NCBI GenBank assembly: GCA_964503755.1
Contig: CAZDBO010000001.1
Coordinates: forward strand, 92,285-156,284
From: an uncultured Candidatus Saccharibacteria bacterium
GTDB taxonomy: Bacteria; Patescibacteriota; Dojkabacteria; JAOAGR01
Reading direction: 5' to 3'
DNA: 64,000 nt
Shown here: one piece after another, positions 3,618 to 52,556 of the stretch
Layout of the letters: every line of letters begins with the position of its first letter
Position numbering within the stretch: the first letter of the stretch is position 1
Translations under genes and position numbers: made by a program
The notes under the pieces: generated by a model
The model's input: only the letters and a program-made list of their open reading frames with translations
What the model was told of the DNA's origin: nothing
Database searches by the model: none

Positions 3618-4670
3618 TTATTCTTTTTGATTTTCCGGTCGGAGTTTCCTTACTTGTTCACCGGCTTGCCACATCTCTGAATTTCTCATTTTGGCAAGTT
3701 CAGCATTTAATTTCTCTCTATAGTTTTTTTGTTTATTCTTTCTAATTACTCTTTGAGCTTCTTTACCTGATGCTACTGATCTATAAAGCTCTTTAAAAAC
3801 TGGCATTACTGCTTTTTTGAATCTATCTTTCCAATCTAGAGCTCCCCTTTGTGCTGTTGTTGAACAGTTTGCAAACATCCAATCCATACCGTTTTCCGCA
3901 ATTAAAGGAATTAAACTTTGAGTAGCCTCCTCTACTGTTTCATTAAAAGCTTCAGACGGCGAATGGCCCATTTTTCTAAATAGTTCATACTGGGCCTCCA
4001 TGATGCCGGCCATCGCACCCATCAAAACACCTCTCTCCCCAACAAGATCCGAATATACTTCCTTCTCAAATGTTGTTGGGAAGAGATATCCTGTACCAAT
4101 TCCGATACCTATGCTGATAACCCTATCTCTCGCTTTTCCTTTAGCATCTTGATAGATTGCAAACGAAGCATTGATACCTTTACCTTCTAAAAAATTTTTT
4201 CTTACCGATCTTCCAGCGCCCTTTGGAGCTACTAAAATTACATCAATGTCTTTAGGAGGAATAATTTTTGTATATTTTGAAAATGTTATTCCAAAACCGT
4301 GAGAAAAACACAAAGCTTTTCCTGCTGTAAGGTATTTTTTAATCTTTGGCCATACTTCGATTTGTCCAGCGTCAGACAAAAGATAGCATATTATGGTACC
4401 TCTTTCAGCTGCCTCTTCTATTTCAAAAAGTGTTTTCCCCTCAACCCAGCCATCAGCTACTGCCTTGTCCCAAGATGCTGTTCCTTTTCTTTGACCGATA
4501 ATTACATTAAATCCATTGTCTCTCAGATTGAGAGCTTGGGCTGGACCCTGTACGCCATAGCCTATTATGGCTATTACTTCGTCTTTTAATGTTTGTTTTG
4601 CTTTTTCTAGTGGATATTCTTTTTTGGTGATGACTTCTTCTACGACACCACCGAAATTTATTTGTGTCAT
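3618..4670 (-). CDS. ilvC: ketol-acid reductoisomerase
   Basis: 350 aa. N-terminal Rossmann GYGVQGPAQALNLRDNG typical of class I KARI. Confidence 0.9.
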   Translation of the reverse strand: MTQINFGGVVEEVITKKEYPLEKAKQTLKDEVIAIIGYGVQGPAQALNLRDNGFNVIIGQRKGTASWDKAVADGWVEGKTLFEIEEAAERGTIICYLLSDAGQIEVWPKIKKYLTAGKALCFSHGFGITFSKYTKIIPPKDIDVILVAPKGAGRSVRKNFLEGKGINASFAIYQDAKGKARDRVISIGIGIGTGYLFPTTFEKEVYSDLVGERGVLMGAMAGIMEAQYELFRKMGHSPSEAFNETVEEATQSLIPLIAENGMDWMFANCSTTAQRGALDWKDRFKKAVMPVFKELYRSVASGKEAQRVIRKNKQKNYREKLNAELAKMRNSEMWQAGEQVRKLRPENQKE

Positions 4671-4791
4671 AGTAATTAACTAATAACATTTTTATTTATA
4701 TATATCAAGATACTTATATTGTTTTATCAACACATATTAATATATATCTAATCTGTTTGATTTAGGATATTTGGTAATACAATAGTAAAGT

Positions 4792-4820
4792 TTGTATTAG
4801 GAAAGATTTTGTTATAAAAT
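4792..4820 (+). promoter_or_regulatory. sigma70-like promoter candidate upstream of tRNA-Leu
   Basis: TTGTAT at 4792-4797 and TAAAAT at 4815-4820 with a 17-nt spacer, about 11 nt before the tRNA 5' end. Confidence 0.3.
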
Positions 4821-4831
4821 ATCTAACCACT

Positions 4832-4917
4832 GCCGGGGTGGCGGAATGGTAGACGCTACGGACTTAAAATCCGTTGCCTGCAAAGGCGTGAGGGTTCGAG
4901 TCCCTCCTCCGGCACCA
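4832..4917 (+). tRNA. tRNA-Leu (anticodon UAA), type II with long variable arm
   Basis: Cloverleaf folded by hand. Acceptor GCCGGGG/CTCCGGC (one G-U); anticodon loop CTTAAAA; variable arm GCCTGCAAAGGC; T-loop TTCGAGT; genomic CCA end. Confidence 0.85.
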
Positions 4918-5004
4918 CACTTCGTTTATAATTTATATTTATTATTCCATCATTTAGTTAGTAAAATTGTAGTTTGTACTATTATTTTCATAAGATGAAC
5001 GATT

Positions 5005-5484
5005 GTGATACTATTAATATATTTTATGCAATTTAGAGAAACAATTTCCAAGCTAAAAAGTATACAATTTTTAAAATATCTTTTGACAGGGGGAGAATCT
5101 TTTCTAGTAGATTATGGCGCTTATAATGCAGTGTTTTTTATTTTGATAAATTTTGATCTAAATAGAGAGATATCAAGTAGTATTGGTAATTTTGTTGGTA
5201 TGACGTTGGGATTGATTACTTCATTTATTGGTAATCAAAAGTTTGTTTTTAATAGATCTAAAGAAACTATGATGAGTAATTTTTCTAAATATCTTTTGTT
5301 ATTTTTGTTCAATTATTTTGCTTCTTCTGGCTTGATTATCTTATTATCATATTTTTTAAATCTTATTTTGGATTTAATCAATCTATCATCGACAGATTTA
5401 AGCTATTCTATATCAAAATTTGTAGTAATGTTTATTCTCATTTTTTGGAATTTTCTTATGTACAAAAAAGTAGTTTTTAAATAA
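5005..5484 (+). CDS. GtrA-family membrane protein (polyisoprenyl-phosphate sugar flippase-like)
   Basis: About 150 aa with 4 predicted TM helices. LKYLLTGG...VDY...NFxxNxxFVF pattern typical of GtrA. The true start may be the Met at about 5026. Confidence 0.55.
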   Translation: MILLIYFMQFRETISKLKSIQFLKYLLTGGESFLVDYGAYNAVFFILINFDLNREISSSIGNFVGMTLGLITSFIGNQKFVFNRSKETMMSNFSKYLLLFLFNYFASSGLIILLSYFLNLILDLINLSSTDLSYSISKFVVMFILIFWNFLMYKKVVFK

Positions 5485-5496
5485 AATCTAAGTATT

Positions 5497-6414
5497 ATGA
5501 AAAAAGTTTCTATCATAATACCAGCATACAACGAGTCAGGACAATTGGATATCACTATTGAAAATCTAGAGCAGGTTTTAGCTGATGCTGATTTTAAGAA
5601 AGAGATAATAATTGTAGATGATGGATCTACAGATGATACATGGGCTCGGATCAAACAACTAAAAGAAAAATATAAACATATTGTCGGTATAAGATTTAGT
5701 AAAAATTATGGAAAGGATAATGCAATATTTGCAGGATTAAAATCGGCTAGTGGCGATGCAGCTGTAGTTTATGATGCAGATATGCAGTTTCCAGCAAATA
5801 TGATATTAGATATGTATAAATATTGGACTACTGGATATAAAATTATTGAAGGAATCAAAGAAAATAATGATCCTGCAAAAGATAATGTTTATTTATTTTT
5901 TGCAAATGCCTTTTATTTTGTATTAAAACTTTTTACAGGTATCGATCTAAGAAGAAATTCAGATTTTAAGTTTTTGGATAGACAAGTTGTAGATGTTATT
6001 TTGCAGCATCAGGAAAGTAATGTATTTTTTCGAGGAATAATAGAGACTCTAGGTTTTCCAAAGCTTTCTTTGTCTTTCAAAGTACAAAATCGCATTGTAG
6101 GTACAAGTAAATGGAGTTTTCGTAACTATTTAAACATGGTTTACAATTCTATTATTCTCTTTACTACATTACCACTTCAGATAAGCTTAGTTTTTACTGT
6201 AATATTTTTTATGTTTTTGCTTTTTTTGTCGGTAGATACTTTCTTGAGATGGTTGCTTGGATTTTCTTTGGAAGGTTTTACAACAGTGATTTTATTGGTC
6301 ATCATAGCAACAATAGCAATCATGATAAATTTAAGTATTTTGGGGATTTATATAGCCAAGATTTATAATGAAATAAAACGCCGACCTAAATATATAATTT
6401 TAGAAAAGCTATAG
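5497..6414 (+). CDS. GT2 glycosyltransferase, GtrB/DPM1/CsbB-like polyprenyl-phosphate hexosyltransferase
   Basis: IIIPAYNE, IIVDDGSTDDT and DAD motifs of the GT-A fold. Two C-terminal TM helices as in GtrB. Confidence 0.8.
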   Translation: MKKVSIIIPAYNESGQLDITIENLEQVLADADFKKEIIIVDDGSTDDTWARIKQLKEKYKHIVGIRFSKNYGKDNAIFAGLKSASGDAAVVYDADMQFPANMILDMYKYWTTGYKIIEGIKENNDPAKDNVYLFFANAFYFVLKLFTGIDLRRNSDFKFLDRQVVDVILQHQESNVFFRGIIETLGFPKLSLSFKVQNRIVGTSKWSFRNYLNMVYNSIILFTTLPLQISLVFTVIFFMFLLFLSVDTFLRWLLGFSLEGFTTVILLVIIATIAIMINLSILGIYIAKIYNEIKRRPKYIILEKL

Positions 6415-6418
6415 ATTT

Positions 6419-8668
6419 ATGTTTGCTATTATTTTACTTACTTTATGGTTTTGGACAGGATATCTTATTGTAAAGAAAATATTAAAAGTTGATAGTTTTT
6501 TGAAAGGTTATTCTTTATTAAATGAAAAAGTAAGTATCAGACCTTGGTTTGTTATTTTTCCTGCAAGCTTTTTGGTTGGTATCTTGATTTCTAATTGGAT
6601 AGTTTATCTTTTAGCATACTTTTTACAAGATGTAGACAATAATATTTTGATTTCAAATGGAATTTTTATACTTTTTCTAATTGGTTTATCAATATTTTTA
6701 TATCGAGCTTACTTAATAAAATTGCTAGAAATTGGAAAAGTACAAAATTTAGCTTTAGTTAATATTAAACCAGTTCAAAATAAGCTAATTAGGTGCTTAA
6801 AAAATAATTTTTATGAAATACTATTAGTATTATTTTTCTTGTTTTTTTCTAGTTTTTTGATGTTTTATACATTTCGAATAGAAGATAACAAAATTTTAAT
6901 GGGGCCAGGGGTTTATTCGGACATGTCAGCTCATATCACTATGATTCGATCTTTGTCCTTTGGAGATAATATACCTACTAGATATCCATTTTTCTACGAA
7001 AATGATGTATCAATCAGATACCATTTTATGTTTCAGTTTATGGCTGCAAATTTGGAGATATCTGGTTTGCCTTTGGATTGGGCTATTAATGTGCCTAGCA
7101 TACTTTCTCTTGTTTCTTTTTTGATGCTTTTGTACGCCTTGTCTACTATTTTGTTTGGGAAGAAATTTATCTCTATTCTCGTTGTACTATTTTTTATTTT
7201 TAGGACAGGGCTTGGTGGATTTTATTATGTTTATGAGCTTTACCAGTATATTGAGGGAGGAGAACTGACACGAGGATTAGAAGTAAAAAATAAATCTAAT
7301 CCGTTGGTAATGAATGGAGAAGAAATCGACAGTGTTTTAGAAGGTATTATAAATACAGATTTTTATGTGGGAGAGACACAAAATGAAATATGGGGGCTAT
7401 ATAGCATAAATGTTTATGTAAATCAGCGCCATTTGGCTTTTGGTATGGGAATTATGTTATTGATATTGTTTTTTGTGATTAGAGATTTTTTGGTATTTTG
7501 GCGTAAATTAAGACATAAAATATACAATCTTAGTGTTTTTGAGAAAACGAAATTTTTTGTAAAAGAGATGTTTTTAACAAAATCAGCTTGGTTTCCAAAT
7601 AATCTATGGGTCTACTTGGGATTGGGTATAATTTTAGGGTTATCTGGCTTTTGGAATGGGGCTGTTTTGATATCAACTTTACTAATTTTATCTATATTGA
7701 CTTTGTTTTCTAGATATAAACTTAGGTTAGCAATTCTAATCTTCATAACTTGTGTATTGTTCTTTTGGCAAGTAAATTTTTTTATTGGCAGTAATGTTGA
7801 GACCAAAACAGAGACTATTATTAAATTTGGTTATTTGGCGGATATACCTTATCATATTCAATATAATCTTCATCAGCTAATAGTTAAAAAAGAATGGTTT
7901 GAGGCATTTTTGTATCTTTCAAATATCGTTCCTTATGTGATTCAGTTTATTTGGGATTTACTTGGAGTTTTTGCTTTGATAATTCTTGTTTTACTGATAT
8001 TTAAGGATGCGGCTTATAGGATTTTAATTATCTCTTTTCTAATGCCATTTATTTTTGCTTTTACAACTAACTTGACTGTAGATATGAATGTGAACCATAA
8101 ATATGTTTTGATATCGATTATTTTACTAAATATATTTATCGCTTATTTCTTTTACAAATTGTCTAAATCAAAATATGTAACAAAATTTATCTTTATAATG
8201 TTGATTTTGGCTTATATCTTTACTGGTATTTTAGATTTTATAGCGTTTGTTAATTCTAACAATTCAAAATTTGCAATTAAATTTGATTTGAATAATGAGT
8301 TTTATAAATGGGTGATAGAAAAGACTGAACCTAATTCTGTTTTTGTTACAGGATATGTAACAGTCTATCCTGTTGGTTATTCGGGTAGGTATTACTTTGC
8401 GGCATGGCCATATTTTGCTTGGTCAGCTGGATATGATACTGTTGGGAGAGAGAAAATTTTACAGTCGATTTATTCAGCTACAGATTTGGATAAATTAAAG
8501 CAGATTTTATATGCTAATAACATTGATTATGTAGTTATAGACTCGGCAGTGTTGAATGATAAATTGTTTAAAGTAAATGAAAAAATATTTAAGGAAAATT
8601 TCGAACTTGTTTATCAAGATTCCGATCCGGTATATGGCTCCGTTAGAATTTATGATGTCAGGGATTAG
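6419..8668 (+). CDS. GT-C fold polytopic membrane glycosyltransferase (GtrC/YfhO/ArnT-like)
   Basis: 749 aa with more than 12 predicted TM helices and a C-terminal soluble domain. Third gene of the GtrA-GtrB cassette. Confidence 0.45.
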   Translation: MFAIILLTLWFWTGYLIVKKILKVDSFLKGYSLLNEKVSIRPWFVIFPASFLVGILISNWIVYLLAYFLQDVDNNILISNGIFILFLIGLSIFLYRAYLIKLLEIGKVQNLALVNIKPVQNKLIRCLKNNFYEILLVLFFLFFSSFLMFYTFRIEDNKILMGPGVYSDMSAHITMIRSLSFGDNIPTRYPFFYENDVSIRYHFMFQFMAANLEISGLPLDWAINVPSILSLVSFLMLLYALSTILFGKKFISILVVLFFIFRTGLGGFYYVYELYQYIEGGELTRGLEVKNKSNPLVMNGEEIDSVLEGIINTDFYVGETQNEIWGLYSINVYVNQRHLAFGMGIMLLILFFVIRDFLVFWRKLRHKIYNLSVFEKTKFFVKEMFLTKSAWFPNNLWVYLGLGIILGLSGFWNGAVLISTLLILSILTLFSRYKLRLAILIFITCVLFFWQVNFFIGSNVETKTETIIKFGYLADIPYHIQYNLHQLIVKKEWFEAFLYLSNIVPYVIQFIWDLLGVFALIILVLLIFKDAAYRILIISFLMPFIFAFTTNLTVDMNVNHKYVLISIILLNIFIAYFFYKLSKSKYVTKFIFIMLILAYIFTGILDFIAFVNSNNSKFAIKFDLNNEFYKWVIEKTEPNSVFVTGYVTVYPVGYSGRYYFAAWPYFAWSAGYDTVGREKILQSIYSATDLDKLKQILYANNIDYVVIDSAVLNDKLFKVNEKIFKENFELVYQDSDPVYGSVRIYDVRD

Positions 8669-9675
8669 TAGATAATATTTACTTCAAATTCTAATTCTAT
8701 ATCAAATTTTCTTTTTACTTCTTCTTTTATGATGTTGGCTAATTCTAAAATATCTCTTCCTGTTGCGTTATTTTTGTTTATCAAAACCAATGCATGATTT
8801 TGATGCACAGAAGCACCTTTGTGCTGGTATCCTTTAAATCCGCATTGTTCGATTAACCATCCTGCGGGTATTTTGACACAAGATTCTTTATTAGTTGGGT
8901 AGGTGGGCATATTGGGGTATTCAATTAATAGTTTATTTATTAAATTCTTTTCGACCTCTGGATTTTTGAAAAAACTCCCAGCATTACCGATTTTATTTGG
9001 GTTTGGTAGTTTTTTGCGACGTATATAAGTAATAATATTTGCTAATAATTTTGGTGATAGTCTTTTTATTTTTCTTCTTTCTAGTTCCTCTTTGATCCCT
9101 GCATATTCTCGTTTGTAATTGTGTTTTTTTGTGGTTAGTTTTAGACTGATTTCTGTTATAAAAACTTTGTTTTTTAGTTCTTTTTTAAATATGCTGTCGC
9201 GATATCCAAAGTCGCATTCATTTTTTGTTAAGATAAAAAATTTTTTGTTAATCAGATCAAAACATTTTACGTATTCGATAGATTCTGCAATCTCCACGCC
9301 ATATGCTCCTATATTTTGTATAGGTGCACCGCCAACTGTACCTGGTATATAAGCAAGATTTTCTATACCTCCCCAATCATTTTGGGTGACAAACTTTACT
9401 AGATTGGTCCAAGATTCGCCGGAATTTATTGACAGATAAATATAATTATCAATTTCTTTAATAACTTTTATCCCTTTTATTTTGTTGTGAATTACTAATC
9501 CATCAAAATCGTCGACAAATAAAACATTTGAACCTCCACCTAGAATAAAATATTTATGATTGAGATTTAAAATTTCTAAATCTTTAATGTCATTAATAAT
9601 TATGTATTGATCAGCTTTTGTGTGTAAATGAAAAGTATTTATCTTGTAAAGATCTTTATTCTTGTAGTATCTCAT
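8665..9675 (-). CDS. murB: UDP-N-acetylenolpyruvoylglucosamine reductase
   Basis: 336 aa. FAD-binding ILGGGSNVLF. Conserved C-terminal MurB substrate domain (KNPxxxxAGWLIEQCGFKG). Confidence 0.85.
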   Translation of the reverse strand: MRYYKNKDLYKINTFHLHTKADQYIIINDIKDLEILNLNHKYFILGGGSNVLFVDDFDGLVIHNKIKGIKVIKEIDNYIYLSINSGESWTNLVKFVTQNDWGGIENLAYIPGTVGGAPIQNIGAYGVEIAESIEYVKCFDLINKKFFILTKNECDFGYRDSIFKKELKNKVFITEISLKLTTKKHNYKREYAGIKEELERRKIKRLSPKLLANIITYIRRKKLPNPNKIGNAGSFFKNPEVEKNLINKLLIEYPNMPTYPTNKESCVKIPAGWLIEQCGFKGYQHKGASVHQNHALVLINKNNATGRDILELANIIKEEVKRKFDIELEFEVNIIY

Positions 9676-10222
9676 TTTTATCTCTTTTCTTCCATTTTAC
9701 GTCTTCTTGGCTATTTAATAAATTTAGATACCGGGCTATAACAAAAAGAAAATCTGATAATCTATTGAAAAATATCAAGATCTCTTGTCTTATTAGTTTA
9801 TTTTTAGCATTGATCTTGACTATCTTTCTTTCTACTCTTCGACAAACGGCACGGCATATATGAGTATAGCAGGCACTTTCACAACCACCGGGTAAAATAA
9901 AATTTGTAAGTTTTGGTAGCTGTTGTTCTATTTTGTCAATACAGTTTTCTATGTATTTAATGTCTTCTTTATCGATGGATTCCTGATCTAACCCAGCTAC
10001 CTCAGCTCCTATATCAAAAAGAATATTTTGGATCCAAGAAATGATTGATTTTAGTTCATCATCAACTTTTTCTTTGGACAAAAGATGGGTTAGATAGCCA
10101 AGATGCGAATTAAACTCGTCTATTTCTCCGCAAAGTTCAATGCGGAAATTATTCTTTTTTACTCTTTTTCCACTGGCAAGTGATGTAAAACCACTATCGC
10201 CAGTGCGGGTGTAGATGGACAT
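9656..10222 (-). CDS. ATP:cob(I)alamin adenosyltransferase, PduO-type (Cob_adeno_trans domain)
   Basis: IYTRTGDSGFTSL N-terminus and LIFFNRLSDFLFVIARY closely match PduO N-domain motifs. Confidence 0.8.
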   Translation of the reverse strand: MSIYTRTGDSGFTSLASGKRVKKNNFRIELCGEIDEFNSHLGYLTHLLSKEKVDDELKSIISWIQNILFDIGAEVAGLDQESIDKEDIKYIENCIDKIEQQLPKLTNFILPGGCESACYTHICRAVCRRVERKIVKINAKNKLIRQEILIFFNRLSDFLFVIARYLNLLNSQEDVKWKKRDKNEILQE

Positions 10223-10319
10223 GAGATTTATTTTAGCTTATTAAAACATATGTTTCTTGATTTAGGTGCTTATTCATCTAGGTTTATCATGTTTGTATAT
10301 GAGTTAGTAGAATTCATTA

Positions 10320-11684
10320 TTATCTGCCAAATATAACTCCCTTTTCATCCTCCAAAACCCCCTTACTTGTCCCAAATCTTGGGTATAAATTTAGATTTTT
10401 AACAAAAATCTGGTTGTTTTTTATAGAAACATCTCTAAATTCTATAGCCACAGCAAATGTGCCAGAATGGATGTTGTTTGCCGGTTTGTCATCTAAAAAT
10501 CTTTCTGAAATCAATTTTACATAACATTCTGCCAAAATTGGGCTTAATTGATGTTTTTTTATTAGATTTTGTGCTATTTTTTCTAAGTTTTTTATTAATT
10601 TTGATTTTTGTTTGTGTATTTTTCGTAAGATATTTTTGTTGTTTTGATAATGAAGTATTTGCTTGTAAGTTGGTTTAAAGATCAATGCAAATTTTGTCAG
10701 ATTTTTTGCGATTTGAATCAGTTCATTTTGAGATAAATTTATACCAAATGATAAGAGTTTTTCTACTACCGACAAAATAATTTTTTCTTTTATTTTCTTT
10801 GATGAAATATGATATTCTAAGCATCCAGACATCAGTATCTCATATATTTCAGAAAATATCTTTACTATATTGATGATTTCTATAATAGCTTGGTCGATAG
10901 ATATTGGAATAGAATAGTGTATATTGATTTTTTGAGTAAAACTTAAATGACGGTTATCACAGATTATATTTCTAATAAATTTGGTTTTTTCATTTGTTAT
11001 ATTTCGAGTTAGATTTGTTATGCTATCCCTGTTTGTTTCATAAAATAACTCGTTGAATACACCAATATGTTTAAGTATTTCATCAGACGTTGGTATCTTG
11101 TAGAAGGCATGTTTGTCAATTGTATTTTGACTAATATACGTTACATGAAAATGTCCATCAGATGCACTTTGACATCCTCTTGATAGGCCATACTTATCTC
11201 TGGTTGCTTGATCTGTATGTCCCATCATCCCATAAATATGCAGATTTTGATAAATAGAATCTTTATGATATTCATACATTATTCTTACTGCCTCAATAAT
11301 CTGTGTTGATATCATCTCGGCACAAGATTTGATTTGTTCTTGATTTTTTAGTGATAGATCTAATATATTGCATCTTTTAGGATTCGAATCTGCATTTTCA
11401 AACCACCAGATGATGAACTGTGAAGGTATTAGATTACCTTGATATTCCATCATATCAAGTGTATGTGGAGATGCCGCTAGTGTATTTATACCGACAAACT
11501 CTTGATTTCTATAGAGTTTGCCTATTTGTGTATTGAGTAAACTATTAAAAAAATTTGTATTTGTATTATCAGTTCTTGGTACAAATGAAGGTATTTTTAT
11601 AAAAGGTAATTGATATTCTATTTTCTTTAGCTTTTTATCAATCTTTTTAATTATGTTTATTAAATTGATTTGCTTTTTCACCAA
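10320..11684 (-). CDS. hypothetical protein (454 aa) with possible HIT-like His motif
   Basis: No clear family. GMMGHTDQ...SASDGHFHVTYI recalls the HxHx(H/Q) nucleotide-binding motif of the HIT/GalT superfamily. Very Lys/Asn/Ile-rich. Confidence 0.3.
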   Translation of the reverse strand: MVKKQINLINIIKKIDKKLKKIEYQLPFIKIPSFVPRTDNTNTNFFNSLLNTQIGKLYRNQEFVGINTLAASPHTLDMMEYQGNLIPSQFIIWWFENADSNPKRCNILDLSLKNQEQIKSCAEMISTQIIEAVRIMYEYHKDSIYQNLHIYGMMGHTDQATRDKYGLSRGCQSASDGHFHVTYISQNTIDKHAFYKIPTSDEILKHIGVFNELFYETNRDSITNLTRNITNEKTKFIRNIICDNRHLSFTQKINIHYSIPISIDQAIIEIINIVKIFSEIYEILMSGCLEYHISSKKIKEKIILSVVEKLLSFGINLSQNELIQIAKNLTKFALIFKPTYKQILHYQNNKNILRKIHKQKSKLIKNLEKIAQNLIKKHQLSPILAECYVKLISERFLDDKPANNIHSGTFAVAIEFRDVSIKNNQIFVKNLNLYPRFGTSKGVLEDEKGVIFGR

Positions 11685-48838: not shown

Positions 48839-49230
48839 TTCTAAGTCTTATTAAATTTATAAATTTACCTAATTTCGAATTTAGTTTTATCTTTATTTTT
48901 TCAACCTATACGTATCGTATATTTTTTACTATTTAAAATTTAATATTGGATTATGTTTCGTATAAAGTAGAATCTAAGTTTAACTAAGAGTATTGGTAAA
49001 TTTCTAAAATTTATTTTTAGATAAGTAAATTTGTTTATACTATGAAGATTTGTTAGATTAATTCAATTTTATTTTACAGAACTTAAAATAAGCAATACTT
49101 TTAAGGTTTAGATAGAAAAAGCAAACAATATATTAACTAAATTTTATTTGTTCTTCAAATTCAGGTAGATTAATCTCATCAGTCGAGTTTTATCAAAATA
49201 TTTTCAGGAAATAATAGAAAGAGATTATGT

Positions 49231-50592
49231 TTAGTTTCTGGAAATATACTCTTTTCCCATGTATTTCACTAGAGCTTTTGGTATTCTAATGCTACCATCT
49301 TTTTGCTGATAATTTTCCACAATAGCAATTATCATTCGTCCAAATGCTATACCGGTGTCGTTTACAGTGTGACAATATTCTTTTTCTCCATTTATTTTTT
49401 TTCTGTATTTTATATTTAATCTTCTAGCTTGATAGTCTGTGGTATTCGTATTTGTACCAACTTCCATAAATGTCTGTTGACCTGGCAACCAAACTTCGAC
49501 ATCTGCCTGTTTTGCTGATGCACTGTATCCCATGTCACCCGTACATTTTTCTATAATATGGAAAGGTAGTTCTAAATTTTGTAGCAACCATTTATTAATA
49601 TCTAATAGTTCTTCATATATTTTTTCGCTCTGTTCTGGAGTACAGATTACATCTAATTCTAATTTGTCAAATTGATGCATTCTTTTTAATCCTCTAGTAT
49701 CTCTTCCCCAACTACCAACCTCAGTTCGAAAACAAACAGTACTAGCTACTAATTTTAGAGGTAGTTCATCTTCATTAAGTATTTTATCCATTGCATAAGC
49801 AAAGTTTGGGGGTTCAGAACTACCAACTAGAAATAGAGAATCTTTTTCTTCTAAATAATCAGATTTGATTTCATAGGCTTGATCTCGACCTTCGGGAAAA
49901 TGACTTGTACCAAAAAGGACACGTTCTTTTACTAATAATGGAGGATTGATTGGTGTGAATCCCCTCTTATATAACTCCTCAAGCATTAAGTTTTGTAATG
50001 CAAATTGTAGCTTTACTATATCACCTATAAGATAAGTAAATCGAGCACCGGATACTTTTGCTCCCTGTTTAAAATCACACAATCCTAATTCTTCTAAAAT
50101 ATCTAGGTGATGTCTACCTTCAAATTGAATCTCCGAATGTGGTGGTGTTTTGGGCATGTATTTGACCGAATCCATATAACCACCTATTTGATCTTTTCCT
50201 AATTCACCCAAGGTTGGGGTCCAAGCATATATCTCTGTATTTTCAGTATCGTCTTTACCAATCTTTACCCCCTCCAGAGGAATATTTGGAATCCATGATA
50301 GTATTTCAAACCATTCTTTTTCTATAGTTTCAAGAGCTTTAGATAGTTCCTGTTCTTTCTTTTTTAAGGCCTTTCCACGTTCTATAAGAGTTTCATCCTT
50401 TTTTGTGGATAGTATATTTGCAATTTTATTTCTTTCTTGATTTACGGTACTAATTTCTGATAGTAGTTCATTTCTTTGTTTATCTAACGATAATAAGCGG
50501 TCTACATCTGCTTTTTGAGAGTTTACTTTTCTTAATTTAATAATCTCTTTTACTCTTTCAGGATTATTTCGTATATAGTTTATATCTATCAT
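49231..50592 (-). CDS. serS: seryl-tRNA synthetase
   Basis: 453 aa. N-terminal coiled-coil arm. Class II motifs (FRTEVGSWGRDTRGLKRMHQFDKLE). Confidence 0.9.
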   Translation of the reverse strand: MIDINYIRNNPERVKEIIKLRKVNSQKADVDRLLSLDKQRNELLSEISTVNQERNKIANILSTKKDETLIERGKALKKKEQELSKALETIEKEWFEILSWIPNIPLEGVKIGKDDTENTEIYAWTPTLGELGKDQIGGYMDSVKYMPKTPPHSEIQFEGRHHLDILEELGLCDFKQGAKVSGARFTYLIGDIVKLQFALQNLMLEELYKRGFTPINPPLLVKERVLFGTSHFPEGRDQAYEIKSDYLEEKDSLFLVGSSEPPNFAYAMDKILNEDELPLKLVASTVCFRTEVGSWGRDTRGLKRMHQFDKLELDVICTPEQSEKIYEELLDINKWLLQNLELPFHIIEKCTGDMGYSASAKQADVEVWLPGQQTFMEVGTNTNTTDYQARRLNIKYRKKINGEKEYCHTVNDTGIAFGRMIIAIVENYQQKDGSIRIPKALVKYMGKEYISRN

Positions 50593-50602
50593 AAATGCTT
50601 AT

Positions 50603-51190
50603 TTATTCTGAAGAGTTTAATTCTTCTAAATATTTTTGATATTCTATATCTTTTGACATGATTGTTTCAAGAGCTTGTCGAGTCACGTCAGCTTTACTTA
50701 AACCATTTCTTTTAACATTCCATTCCAGATACTGATCTATATGTGGCGGTAATATCAACAAAAATTTTGTTTGCATAAGACTACGTGCTTCTTCTAGAGC
50801 TTCTGATAATCTTATTTCTAAGGTGCTTGTTGTATATTTTTTAACTAATAGATATTTTGAAGGATGATTTTGTAAAGTTTTTATTTGACTATGCGATTTT
50901 GAAATAAAATCAGTATTATAAATCACTATAACAGGCTTTTTATTTGCTATAGATATAGATGCTTCATACAAAATATACGTACTCTTTTTGGTATATTCGA
51001 TTACTACCAAATCAGATTTTAAAATATTATCTTCATTAGACTGTATTATTTTTTTAATTTCTTGCTTATTATTTTCTAATTGTATAGGCTTTCTTTCTAC
51101 AATGCTAAAACGACGAATTTTTAATATGTCTCTAATCCGATTTATAGTTTCTGAATGAGACTTATAACTATAAGATAAGTATATTTTCAT
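50603..51190 (-). CDS. Rossmannoid nucleoside 2-deoxyribosyltransferase/SLOG-like domain fused to C-terminal ribbon-helix-helix domain
   Basis: 195 aa. N-terminal MKIYLSYSY...DLVVIEYTKKSTYILYEASISIANKKPVIVIY fits the NDT-like fold pattern. C-terminal LILPPHIDQYLEWNVKRNGLSKADVTRQALETIM fits the RHH (CopG/Arc) pattern. Confidence 0.4.
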   Translation of the reverse strand: MKIYLSYSYKSHSETINRIRDILKIRRFSIVERKPIQLENNKQEIKKIIQSNEDNILKSDLVVIEYTKKSTYILYEASISIANKKPVIVIYNTDFISKSHSQIKTLQNHPSKYLLVKKYTTSTLEIRLSEALEEARSLMQTKFLLILPPHIDQYLEWNVKRNGLSKADVTRQALETIMSKDIEYQKYLEELNSSE

Positions 51191-51263
51191 TGGTAAAGTA
51201 TATAATATAAATCACAAAATTCAAAAATTATTAAAATATTCTTAATTGATTAAATTTTAAAAT

Positions 51264-52556
51264 TTATGGGTGTAATCGATTAATCATTCTTGGAAAAGGA
51301 ATTGTGGTTCTTACATGCTTGACACCTGCAATGTATTTCACAAGTCTTTCTAGACCTAGGCCAAATCCACTATGAGGTACAGTTCCATATCTTCTCAAAT
51401 CAAAATACCAATCAAATACTTTTGGATCTAAACCATATTCTCTAATTCGTTTTTCTAACAAATCTAAATCATGAATTCTTTGACTTCCACCTATTATTTC
51501 TCCACATCCTTCGGGCGCTAAAAGATCATTGCATAGTACTCTATTATCACCTTCTTCAAGATCAGGCTGCATATAAAATGCTTTGATCTCTGCAGGCATA
51601 TGATGCAATACTATAAATTCATCATACATGCTTGTTAACACTGCCTCCTCATCAGCGCCTATATCAGCACGTTCATCTAATGAATAACCATGTTTATTTA
51701 ACTCTTTTACTGCGTCACGATGATGCATCCATATAAAAGGTTTTAGAGCATTCTCTAGTTTTTTAAGATCTCGTCCGAGTATTTCAAGTTCATATGTACA
51801 ATTTTCTAAACAATATTTAACAACATATTTAATCATTCTTTCTTGAAGTGCAATATTATCTTTCCAATCATAAAAAGAAACTTCGGGTTCTAACATCCAA
51901 AACTCAGTAAGATGTCTTCGTGTTTTTGATTTTTCAGCACGAAATGTAGGACCAAATGTGTATATTTTCCCAAAAGCCATAGCTCCTGCTTCGCCGTGCA
52001 ATTGTGCACTTTGAGTAAGGTATGCACTTCTGCCAAAATATTCAACTTCAAATAATGTAGAACCTCCTTCAACTTCATTTGCTGTAAACATCGGACCGTC
52101 AAATTTGATAAAACCCTCGTTATGAAAAAATTCATGTAAAGCCCAGATTATTTCCGATCTTATTTTCAAAGTGGCAAATTGACTTTTAGATCTTAACCAT
52201 AAATGTCTTCTATCTAATAAAAATTTAACACCATGTTTTTTAGGTGCTATTGGATAATTATTTGATACACCAATGACATCTAAACTATTCAAATTTAACT
52301 CCACACCCATTGGAGAACGTGCATCTTCTTTTACAACACCTATGACTTCTACTGAAGATTCTATACCTAGTTTATCTATTTCAGAAAATTTATCAGCACC
52401 TAATTTATTTTTTTCTAATACAGCTTGAACAAAACCAGTACCATCTCTCAATATTAGAAATATGATTGACCCTGATGATCTTTTATTAGCTATCCATCCT
52501 TTTATTTTTACTTCTTGCCCCAGACGGTTTTTTAATTTGCTTATATTAGTTTCCAT
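51264..52556 (-). CDS. asnS: asparaginyl-tRNA synthetase (class IIb; archaeal-type AspRS not excluded)
   Basis: 430 aa. N-terminal OB anticodon-binding domain. Motif 2 FRAEKSKTRRHLTEFWMLEPEVSF is close to the AsnRS consensus. Confidence 0.6.
   Translation of the reverse strand: METNISKLKNRLGQEVKIKGWIANKRSSGSIIFLILRDGTGFVQAVLEKNKLGADKFSEIDKLGIESSVEVIGVVKEDARSPMGVELNLNSLDVIGVSNNYPIAPKKHGVKFLLDRRHLWLRSKSQFATLKIRSEIIWALHEFFHNEGFIKFDGPMFTANEVEGGSTLFEVEYFGRSAYLTQSAQLHGEAGAMAFGKIYTFGPTFRAEKSKTRRHLTEFWMLEPEVSFYDWKDNIALQERMIKYVVKYCLENCTYELEILGRDLKKLENALKPFIWMHHRDAVKELNKHGYSLDERADIGADEEAVLTSMYDEFIVLHHMPAEIKAFYMQPDLEEGDNRVLCNDLLAPEGCGEIIGGSQRIHDLDLLEKRIREYGLDPKVFDWYFDLRRYGTVPHSGFGLGLERLVKYIAGVKHVRTTIPFPRMINRLHP

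Follow-up and report, generated by a model that had tools for sequence, protein, structure and literature searches.

A degenerate DNPH1-like domain fused to a predicted ribbon-helix-helix module: a candidate nucleotide-responsive regulator of the Patescibacteria

Several ribbon-helix-helix (RHH) regulators, including NikR, MetJ and PutA, couple DNA binding to a small-molecule-binding or enzymatic domain, and the PurR protein of Bacillus subtilis carries a catalytically inactive PRTase-like domain, a sensor of nucleotide precursors, alongside its DNA-binding domain. To our knowledge, a sensor of the nucleoside 2-deoxyribosyltransferase (NDT) or DNPH1 fold is found in none of NikR, MetJ and PutA, and we know of no characterised DNPH1 or NDT that bears a C-terminal RHH. 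In the CPR/Patescibacteria, whose tiny genomes encode few recognisable transcription factors and which cannot make nucleotides de novo, we know of no mechanism for sensing nucleotides taken from the host. The fold of DNPH1 is a current drug target. The catalytic triad of this enzyme consists of Tyr24, Asp80 (the general acid) and Glu104 (the nucleophile), with the 5'-phosphate coordinated by Ser98 and by Ser128' of the partner subunit (PMC10603095). Its D80N and E104Q variants serve as substrate traps (PMC10603095; also PDB titles).

The gene described here, designated X, lies in a window of 64,000 nucleotides (the whole stretch of DNA that was analysed) originating from an ultra-small, Dojkabacteria-like CPR bacterium. 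Translation of the window confirmed an open reading frame with an ATG start and a TAA stop, flanked by two aminoacyl-tRNA synthetase genes:

51264-52556, minus strand: asnS, asparagine--tRNA ligase, upstream of X (NF003037, 534.7 bits; cutoff 414)
50603-51190, minus strand: X, fusion of a DNPH1/NDT-like domain and a C-terminal RHH, complete open reading frame of 195 aa plus stop
49231-50592, minus strand: serS, serine--tRNA ligase, downstream of X (TIGR00414, 408.9 bits; cutoff 301.65)

The strings quoted in an earlier sequence-only reading of this gene were all present in the translation, namely DLVVIEY (residues 60-66), YEASISIANKKPVIVIY (75-91), LILPPHIDQYL (145-155) and GLSKADVTRQALE (163-175). 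As X is separated from asnS by only 73 nt (51191-51263) and from serS by 10 nt, there is no space for a partner open reading frame beside it. X is probably transcribed together with serS. Further neighbours include ssb, murA, greA, rplT, rpmI and infC. The GC content of X (0.26) falls inside the local range of 0.235-0.357, and with this native composition a recent horizontal acquisition was rejected. Around asnS, X and serS, neither Rfam nor tRNA scans revealed a T-box or any other RNA element.

An exhaustive HMMER search retrieved 373 cluster representatives (50% identity) at E<=1e-3, of which 74 also passed E<=1e-10; with few exceptions these were 180-205 aa long and aligned over both halves of X, which excludes a chance reading frame. 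A word-indexed homolog search was less sensitive, returning 2 matches from the single query and 8 from a profile. All assignable family loci belonged to the CPR/Patescibacteria, and tblastn searches of 50,697 phage and 72,556 plasmid records yielded no homologs. The asnS-X-serS order was common to orthologs of 94% and 87% identity, and adjacency of X to serS was retained at L076, where X is 37% identical; this was the sole informative locus from a metagenome scan for the window subtype, which mostly recovered the other subtype. The aminoacyl-tRNA synthetase setting, judged odd in the earlier reading, is hence real and conserved in the window subtype, but atypical of the family, the usual setting of which is a solitary gene with the ftsA-groESL operon on one side and the yidC-L25-lon operon on the other. 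This syntenic position was retained in approximately 46-48 of 67 loci. Of 74 loci, 66 had just one copy of the gene; one locus carried six tandem paralogs. The 63 genome loci were found with an alignment of the KFILII subfamily and, because of this choice of query, are skewed towards the major subtype.

The fold of X was modelled with AF2, for which a shallow alignment of 3 sequences gave a pLDDT of only 41.7, whilst an alignment of 135 sequences gave a monomer model with a pLDDT of 95 and a pTM of 0.80. In this model the Rossmannoid domain gives way to an extended strand and then to three successive helices:

50777-51190, minus strand: N-terminal Rossmannoid domain, residues 1-138 (AF2 model, profile and fold matches)
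strands of this domain (AF2 model): b1 2-7, b2 29-32, b3 61-65, b4 87-92, b5 114-119
helices of this domain (AF2 model): a1 13-25, a2 42-58, a3 71-82, a4 101-107, a5 124-138
51179-51181, 51035-51037 and 50963-50965, minus strand: Y4, N52 and E76, equivalents of the DNPH1 triad
50651-50776, minus strand: RHH module, residues 139-180 (AF2 model and profile alignments)
50747-50770, minus strand: RHH ribbon TKFLLILP, residues 141-148
helices of the RHH: A, residues 149-162; NGLSK turn; B, residues 166-180
50606-50650, minus strand: third C-terminal helix, residues 181-195, with conserved D181, Y184 and Y187-L188

The five parallel strands of the N-terminal half form the flavodoxin-like/Rossmannoid alpha/beta arrangement of the NDT/DNPH1 fold, so that the Rossmannoid half proposed previously was borne out, with no sign of a single non-Rossmann fold across the protein. 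The family profile matched rat and human DNPH1/Rcl over positions 3-132 (E=3e-17 to 2e-14), and DNPH1/Rcl structures accounted for all of the best 50 Foldseek matches of the X model. The Pfam family PF05014 (Nuc_deoxyrib_tr) was matched by 65 of 135 members at E<0.01, X alone scoring 20.8 bits, under the cutoff of 28.8. Profiles and model together place the N-terminal domain in the nucleoside 2-deoxyribosyltransferase superfamily, nearest to DNPH1/Rcl. The NDT part of the earlier 'NDT/SLOG-like' assignment can thereby be sharpened to DNPH1/Rcl-like, but its SLOG part fell away: no SLOG (LOG-like) model matched, and the best fold match lay elsewhere, with DNPH1/Rcl.

In X the triad reads Y4/N52/E76, with Asn in place of the general-acid Asp, and so resembles the substrate trap D80N of DNPH1. 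Among 135 family members the general-acid position was acidic in 7 and non-acidic in the other 128, the nucleophile position was acidic in 53 and lacked the nucleophile in 82, and a complete triad occurred in a single member. The sugar-phosphate side of the pocket fared differently, with D60, E65, S70 and G74 kept family-wide; S70 is the equivalent of Ser98 (Ser in 86 of 135 members, Thr in 12), whilst the equivalent of Ser128' is Ile in X and unconserved in the family. This combination of triad loss with conserved residues on the sugar-phosphate side led us to propose binding without efficient turnover.

A rival explanation is that X remains an active nucleotide N-glycosidase of salvage or pool sanitation, which would convert dNMPs or modified dNMPs to base and deoxyribose-5-phosphate in a nucleotide-auxotrophic CPR cell, with the RHH serving as a dimerisation clamp or as part of a PutA-like 'trigger enzyme'. 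Y4, S70 and E76 are kept in the window subtype, and as the nucleophile Glu is invariant there (7/7), residual catalysis is possible; the conserved residues beside the pocket are likewise compatible with an enzyme, and some members are labelled DNPH1 or NDT in IMG and NCBI. Genes for Maf, UDG family 4, NUDIX, HAD, GTP cyclohydrolase II, LOG-like and PfkB proteins were also found as occasional neighbours, but these associations were sporadic and showed no operon arrangement. Against catalysis stand the frequent loss of both the general acid and the nucleophile, the use of the matching DNPH1 changes as substrate traps, and a selection that is strongest on the RHH rather than on the pocket, and we regard an active enzyme as somewhat unlikely.

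That selection was evident in several ways. All of the differences between X and its close orthologs (26/26 and 11/11) fell within residues 1-137 (P ~1e-4), column entropy was 2.10 bits in the C-terminal part against 2.91, and the most conserved residues of the family, K142, F143, Y154, L155, W157, K166 and R171, all lie in the RHH. By these sequence comparisons, constraint in the family is highest in the C-terminal module.

The C-terminal RHH predicted earlier was supported by the modelled succession of an extended segment (139-148) and two helices (149-162 and 166-180), inter-chain strand pairing being visible only in dimers, and by hhalign, in which the C-terminal profile aligned in register with CopG (E=7.7e-5 over 37 columns), Arc (1.4e-3) and NikR (9e-3). 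The non-RHH controls Cro (E=0.62) and Rop (0.34) aligned over one column each. The two best matches of this profile in a PDB search were RHH proteins, 7by2 (CopG family, 0.07) and 5ytp (0.078), and Pfam RHH families were matched by 14 of 42 members (RHH_3 in 9, best 4e-5; RHH_1 in 3; NikA-like in 2). The C-terminal 57-68 aa of X searched alone gave no significant Pfam match, and a PDB match that was spurious. The turn of X reads N-G-L-S-K-A-D-V-T-R, in keeping with an RHH, with K166 present in 117 and R171 in 132 of the 135 members. The third C-terminal helix possibly has a role in oligomerisation or in packing against the N-terminal domain.

By register with Q9/N11/R13 of Arc, the DNA-facing ribbon positions of X are K142/L144/I146. 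Among the 135 members, position 142 was Lys or Arg in 133, position 144 was Ile in 60, Asn in 36 and Thr in 17, and position 146 was Ile in 89 and Arg in 12. The ribbon of X is therefore unusually hydrophobic for an RHH DNA reader, and hydrophobic outward ribbon residues also occur in some 45% of the family (KFILII in 50 of 135 members), whilst Arc-like N/T/R residues occupy these positions in about 40% of relatives.

This hydrophobic ribbon argues for a second rival, in which the RHH-like fold does not bind DNA and instead acts as a protein-protein, RNA-binding or oligomerisation domain in a role outside transcription, such as one connected with cell division/chaperone loci or with tRNA and aminoacylation. 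The conserved neighbours, ftsA-like and Lon-like AAA+ genes or serS, would suit such a role. The conserved basic residues (K142/R, K166 and R171) and the G-x-S turn typical of DNA-binding RHH proteins speak for DNA binding instead, as does a spacing-specific repeat tied to the promoters of X transcription units, and we find this rival distinctly doubtful. The candidate promoter elements at X itself were as follows:

51191-51263, minus strand: asnS-X spacer, 73 nt, with a promoter-like site judged by consensus match
51219-51224 and 51197-51202, minus strand: TTGAAT and TATACT, separated by 16 nt, the predicted promoter of X
51198-51209, minus strand: TATATTATATAC block, possible -10 box, lone operator half-site, or both

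Between the predicted -10 element of X and the ATG lie 6 nt (TTTACC), a distance that points to a leaderless transcript or one with a very short leader. The TATATTATATAC block was unchanged in both close orthologs (94% and 87%), whereas the remainder of the spacer had diverged in the 87% one, and the copy of the block at X was the only exact one in the window. Scans of the window found no regulon signal, either for TATATTATATAC (3 matches against 2.3 expected) or for the pair TATATA-N11-TATATA (4 against 2.3, none near X). In the major subtype, this pair was found in 14 of 64 X-upstream regions, compared with a mean of 0.3 and a maximum of 2 in shuffles, though the orthologous loci behind these counts are not statistically independent. 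At the same loci it also preceded 4 of the 25 genes that lie immediately upstream of X on the same strand, 3 of 188 other adjacent genes or genes 2-3 positions away, and none of 155 genes at least 4 positions away, and it was seen in 2 of 14 independent metagenome loci. As far as its placement indicates, the pair marks the promoters of X-containing transcription units in the major subtype, and the enrichment of single TATATA elements may in large part come from a TGnTATATAAT-type -10 box. The X of the window has a single TATATTATATAC element in place of the pair, and this element may just be a -10 box.

The degenerate triad, the conservation peak in the RHH and the promoter-associated repeat of the major subtype lend indirect support to our best hypothesis, that X is a nucleotide-sensing RHH autoregulator, a one-component, ligand-responsive DNA-binding protein specific to the CPR/Patescibacteria, which we consider about evenly balanced between true and false. 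How X would bind ligand and DNA, regulate itself and oligomerise is inferred as follows. The N-terminal domain would derive from DNPH1/NDT-type nucleotide N-glycosidases by loss of the general-acid Asp and, family-wide, usually of the nucleophile Glu as well, and would bind a nucleoside or deoxynucleoside 5'-monophosphate-like ligand through its retained sugar-phosphate side. The RHH would dimerise through its beta-ribbon and contact AT-rich DNA at the promoter of X itself, the N-terminal domains would likely be dimeric as in DNPH1, whose active sites are each built from both subunits, and ligand occupancy would modulate DNA binding. The copy in the window would thus control X and the co-transcribed serS.

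A broader version, which we hold to be rather doubtful, would make the whole family a lineage-wide nucleotide-pool sensor of nucleotide-scavenging CPR, with a pseudoenzyme reader coupled to transcription through a NikR-like tetramer of two RHH dimers set about 17 bp apart. Candidate signals would be (deoxy)nucleoside monophosphates or nucleotides that carry damage or a modification. The targets would be serS/translation genes in the window subtype and, in the major subtype, the transcription unit of the family gene itself, next to the divergently oriented ftsA-groESL operon of cell division and chaperone genes. X would then belong to the few dedicated metabolic transcription factors of reduced genomes.

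A third rival, very improbable in our estimation, in which X is a TIR-type (ThsB-like) NAD-processing defence/signalling protein, or a toxin-antitoxin-like module with the RHH as antitoxin or autoregulator, draws on a Pfam ThsB_TIR match of X (23.5 bits, cutoff 21.2), PADLOC ThsB models (E=2e-5), the NCBI name 'TIR domain-containing protein' of the 87% ortholog, the frequency of RHH domains among antitoxins and the tandem paralogs, but ThsB_TIR was matched by just 3 of 135 members against 65 for Nuc_deoxyrib_tr, the family profile matched a TIR (8fz9) at E=0.38 against 3e-17 for DNPH1, no ThsA or toxin partner lies between the asnS and serS flanks, the core-genome position is conserved across Dojkabacteria and relatives, and no homologs turned up in the phage and plasmid records searched. 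Identity with Thoeris ThsB was accordingly rejected, TIR not being the best match and neither ThsA (SIR2/SLOG or Macro) nor a defence island accompanying these housekeeping genes. A type II toxin-antitoxin module was likewise set aside, as was the antitoxin-like alternative of the sequence-only reading, given the lack of an adjacent toxin or other partner gene and of mobile-element copies, and the conserved, core-genome-like synteny. NCBIfam, PHROGs and PADLOC provided no decisive match to X.

Literature searches found nothing relevant on an NDT/DNPH1-RHH fusion. Of the roles considered, neither enzyme nor defence protein is as likely for X as that of a nucleotide-sensing gene regulator of a previously undescribed sort. 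If the autoregulator reading is correct, the X family, conserved and mostly single-copy, would be a concrete and testable candidate for nucleotide sensing in CPR, and would add a new class of effector/sensor domain to the RHH regulators. Its degenerate pocket would show how an enzyme can evolve naturally into a binding protein. The inconsistent database labels would also be corrected, because members currently carry conflicting names ('TIR domain-containing protein', 'nucleoside 2-deoxyribosyltransferase', 'DNPH1' and 'hypothetical').

Compared with DNPH1/Rcl and the remainder of the NDT superfamily (PF05014, including the MilB/BcmB CMP hydrolases and the NDTs), X is without the general-acid Asp, and the second phosphate Ser (S128') is unconserved in its family. 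Like NikR, MetJ and PutA, X is predicted to carry on a single chain both an RHH, which dimerises, and a domain that binds a ligand or derives from an enzyme. The RHH of NikR aligns in register with that of the X family, and candidate half-sites 17 bp apart, centre to centre, would be compatible with a NikR-like arrangement of two RHH dimers and a second oligomerisation domain; unlike in NikR and PutA, where the RHH is N-terminal, that of X is C-terminal. The alignment with CopG is in register from the ribbon through helix A and the G-x-S turn to helix B (KFLLILPPHIDQYLEWNVKRNGLSKADVTRQALE against RLTITLSESVLENLEKMAREMGLSKSAMISVALE in CopG), and the ribbons FNLIx and FTLRI seen among family members are similar to FNLRW of Arc. 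However, CopG, Arc and Mnt are stand-alone proteins of 45-80 aa from mobile elements, whereas X is a chromosomal, core fusion to a 138-aa sensor-like domain and has two hydrophobic residues at DNA-facing ribbon positions. HicB antitoxins share the order of a globular domain followed by a C-terminal RHH (one member has a weak Pfam HicB match), and ThsB TIR proteins share the marginal Pfam match and an FxSYS-like beta1 motif, but X differs from both in having no adjacent toxin or ThsA, in lying off mobile elements and in its NDT/DNPH1 N-terminal domain. A parallel in concept is PurR, in which, as proposed for X, a nucleotide-metabolism enzyme fold has lost catalysis and been reused as an effector-binding domain; the two share no homology, the sensor being of NDT rather than PRTase type and the DNA-binding domain an RHH rather than a winged helix.

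The sequence-only reading had placed a two-domain gene, termed X here, between asnS and serS, and this open reading frame was found to be genuine, with all of the sequence strings quoted from its product present in the 195-residue protein and both flanking genes scoring above NCBIfam equivalog cutoffs:

51264-52556, minus strand, asnS, upstream of X, above the equivalog cutoff
50603-51190, minus strand, X, encoding 195 amino acids, ATG start and TAA stop
49231-50592, minus strand, serS, downstream of X, above the equivalog cutoff

X is separated from asnS by 73 nt and from serS by 10 nt, and its GC content (0.26) lies inside the local range. Scans for tRNAs and Rfam families, T-box included, returned none in the asnS/X/serS surroundings, and within positions 49231-52556 of the window neither asnS nor serS is preceded by a T-box leader or any other Rfam element; regulation of these two genes in the window is not by a Firmicute-type riboswitch. 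Convergent greA and serS are separated by a 392-nt AT-rich gap (48839-49230, GC approximately 0.24) that yielded neither a tRNA nor an Rfam family nor a called terminator.

A word-indexed search retrieved only two close relatives, with 94% and 87% identity, both in the same asnS-X-serS position; the latter, from a Candidatus Dojkabacteria MAG, is named 'TIR domain-containing protein' by NCBI. The search for homologous fusions suggested by the sequence-only reading was more productive when conducted exhaustively with HMMER against 1.84 billion cluster representatives, yielding 373 proteins at E<=1e-3, of which 74 reached E<=1e-10; almost all were 180-205 amino acids long and aligned over both halves of the query. 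X is therefore no orphan, and instead represents a sizeable family whose two-part architecture is fixed. Database names of its members are inconsistent, and no description of a fusion between a DNPH1-like domain and a ribbon-helix-helix (RHH) was found in the literature searched. We give about an even chance to X being a ligand-responsive RHH regulator, with an effector domain that derives from DNPH1 and would bind nucleotides largely without catalysis. Repression would act on the promoter of X itself and, in the window, extend to serS, taken as co-transcribed with X.

Queried alone against Pfam, X matched ThsB_TIR marginally (23.5 bits, cutoff 21.2), and Nuc_deoxyrib_tr with 20.8 bits (cutoff 28.8). 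A profile of the 135-sequence family alignment matched DNPH1/Rcl over positions 3-132 (E=3e-17), followed in rank by NDTs and the MilB/BcmB CMP hydrolases, but reached only E=0.38 against a TIR structure (8fz9). Per-member scans recovered Nuc_deoxyrib_tr in 65 of the 135 sequences and ThsB_TIR in three. The Rossmannoid fold anticipated for this half was evident in an AF2 model built on the same alignment (pLDDT 95, pTM 0.80), where residues 2-138 form a five-stranded beta/alpha domain, and the best 50 Foldseek matches in the PDB were all DNPH1/Rcl. On the basis of profile, per-member, fold and structural matches, the N-terminal domain belongs to the NDT superfamily and is DNPH1-like; the earlier NDT/SLOG-like label is thus supported for NDT and not for SLOG (LDcluster4, 13.8 bits, cutoff 26.3). 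The TIR label carried by the 87% ortholog is likewise unsupported, given the 8fz9 value and the three ThsB_TIR matches.

DNPH1 employs the triad Y24/D80/E104, with phosphate held by S98 and S128' (PMC10603095). When rat Rcl was aligned to the family HMM, the equivalents in X were Y4, N52 and E76, and S98 corresponded to S70, so that X lacks the DNPH1 triad, its general-acid Asp being replaced by Asn. The same Asp to Asn change is the substrate-trapping one in DNPH1 crystals (D80N and D69N PDB entries among the profile and Foldseek matches). An acidic residue occupies the general-acid position in 7/135 members and the nucleophile position in 53/135, whilst other pocket residues are kept: D60 in 126/135, E65 (as E or D) in 130/135, G74 in 112/135, and Ser (86/135) or Thr (12/135) at the S70 position. 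This pattern fits a pocket that would still bind a sugar-phosphate-type ligand, with catalysis generally gone. That X is an active N-glycosidase in which the RHH acts as a clamp, or a trigger enzyme of the PutA kind, appears unlikely, at perhaps half the weight of a regulator: E76 is kept in all seven members of the serS-linked subtype found in the window, making residual activity of the window copy possible, but the complete triad occurs in one of the 135 members and X itself carries N52. In three loci with two copies each (L018, L042 and L051), tandem paralogs have the same ribbon (TKFILIIS) and the same helix B (RMHKAQ.VR) and differ at triad-equivalent positions, for example Y/M/D versus Y/I/E, which would fit different ligands acting on one DNA site, or heterodimers.

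The AF2 model is consistent with the predicted C-terminal RHH, showing an extended segment (139-148), a helix (149-162), an NGLSK turn and a second helix (166-180), followed by a third (182-194); coil at the strand position is expected in a monomer model, since the RHH strand pairs only in a dimer, the presumed state of X. As a single query the C-terminal fragment matched nothing, whereas a profile of 42 C-terminal sequences aligned with CopG (E=7.7e-5 over 37 columns), Arc (1.4e-3) and NikR (9e-3), its strand and helices falling on theirs, and over one column each with the non-RHH controls Cro (0.62) and Rop (0.34). Its best two PDB profile matches were RHH proteins (7by2, of the CopG family, and 5ytp), and Pfam assigned RHH_3 to nine of the 42 members (best 4e-5), RHH_1 to three and a NikA-like family to two. 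Profile and motif evidence thus places the module in the RHH superfamily. The family's most invariant residues lie here (K142, F143, Y154, L155, W157, K166, R171 and D181), and in the two close orthologs 26/26 and 11/11 substitutions fall within residues 1-137, with zero in 138-195.

Two of the three ribbon residues predicted to face DNA, K142/L144/I146 in register with Arc, are hydrophobic; KFILII is the most frequent ribbon (50/135), and Arc-like N/T/R occurs in approximately 40% of members. Some RHH proteins read thymine methyl groups with hydrophobic residues, and such a ribbon would suit an all-AT site. The hydrophobic positions nonetheless remain a weakness of the DNA-binding reading, and L144/I146 speak for an RHH-like module with some other role, which we regard as improbable.

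Scanning genomes with the alignment of one subfamily, which selected for the KFILII ribbon, gave 63 loci, of which the named ones were all CPR/Patescibacteria (Dojkabacteria/WS6, MAGs labelled Saccharibacteria, and Doudnabacteria) except for one weak Oscillospiraceae match. Further members came from WWE3 and 'Patescibacteria group' records, and tblastn found no homologs in phage and plasmid collections. X is single-copy in 66 of 74 loci examined (the 64-kb window and others of approximately 4-13 kb) and present twice in six. A striking local expansion amid nucleotide-metabolism genes was seen in L010 (JGI metagenome 3300047548), where six tandem paralogs within 6.6 kb (3806-10374; four KFNLIx and two KFILII ribbons, one paralog N-terminally truncated to 137 aa) adjoin two NUDIX genes and CYTH, LOG-like SLOG, PfkB, HAD and GTP cyclohydrolase II genes; the same locus recurs in shorter form as L011, with four of these paralogs.

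In approximately 46-48 of 67 non-redundant loci X stands alone on its strand, between a divergent operon of ftsA-like, 676-aa membrane protein, groES and groEL genes and a convergent yidC/jag/L25/Lon-like AAA+ operon. This Dojkabacteria-type synteny is highly conserved in L012-L074 (e.g. L047, L052, L060 and L063); the 'Lon-like' protein (approximately 401 aa) has only Pfam AAA and Lon_lid, without the protease domain. Occasional insertions beside X encode SAM methyltransferases, DUF3182, Maf, UDG family 4 or GTP cyclohydrolase II, so that its neighbours are loosely nucleotide-flavoured without a fixed operon. The window subtype, with helix B ...EWNV+E+G.SKAE.TR.AIE rather than ...RMHKAQ.VR..., is repeatedly tied to asnS and/or serS (the window, L001, L075, L016, L013 and L014). 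A further locus, L076 (898-5994), keeps the gene order with serS immediately after X and a 501-aa gene inserted between asnS and X; identities to the window are 72% for AsnRS, 39% for SerRS and 37% for X, and the SerRS/X pair has therefore either diverged much faster than AsnRS or been replaced. X behaves as a core gene, unlike a defence island or TA module, and the suggested antitoxin-like role is not supported, given this synteny, the mostly single copy and the lack of tblastn hits in phage and plasmid collections. A TIR, defence or TA module is accordingly very improbable, the profile also preferring DNPH1/Rcl (3e-17) to TIR (0.38).

For the preferred regulator, a candidate operator was sought by setting the 100 nt ahead of each family gene against the other upstream regions of the same loci. 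TATATA occurred in 46/64 family regions, against 63/377 other regions and 31/130 promoter-bearing (divergent) controls, and TATATA-N11-TATATA in 14/64 (dinucleotide shuffles: mean 0.30, maximum 2), counts drawn from AT-rich genomes and orthologous, non-independent loci, the genome loci being picked for the KFILII ribbon. The spacing of successive TATATA copies had a sharp peak at 17 bp centre to centre (12/32 pairs, with 16/32 at 16-18 bp). All seven 'background' occurrences of the N11 pair lay at most three genes from X: 4/25 directly upstream on the same strand (putative operon leaders), 1/74 at other adjacent genes, 2/114 at genes 2-3 away and 0/155 at genes four or more away. The first TATATA usually falls on an extended -10 box (TGnTATATAAT), with the second 14-23 nt ahead of the ATG, a geometry that would suit an autorepressor over -10 and +1. 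Independent metagenome loci had TATATA in 13/14 regions and the N11 pair in 2/14; a single TATATA may be merely a -10 variant. The window's X upstream region lacks the N11 pair and contains one block:

51198-51209, minus strand, single TATATTATATAC block, sole exact copy in the 64 kb

This block is unchanged in the 94% and 87% orthologs, the remaining spacer having diverged in the latter, and overlaps a promoter-like TTGAAT-16-TATACT site ending 6 nt ahead of the ATG, which suggests a leaderless transcript or one with a very short leader. Since the pair is absent and the lone block overlaps this site, operator evidence for the window copy is minimal.

X belongs to none of the NikR, MetJ, PutA or PurR families, yet its proposed logic is like that of NikR, MetJ and PutA, in which an RHH is coupled to ligand binding or enzymology. 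X shares the NDT-superfamily fold and profile of DNPH1 and differs in the catalytic triad. As proposed, it would also resemble B. subtilis PurR, which senses through a nucleotide-enzyme fold that has lost its activity.
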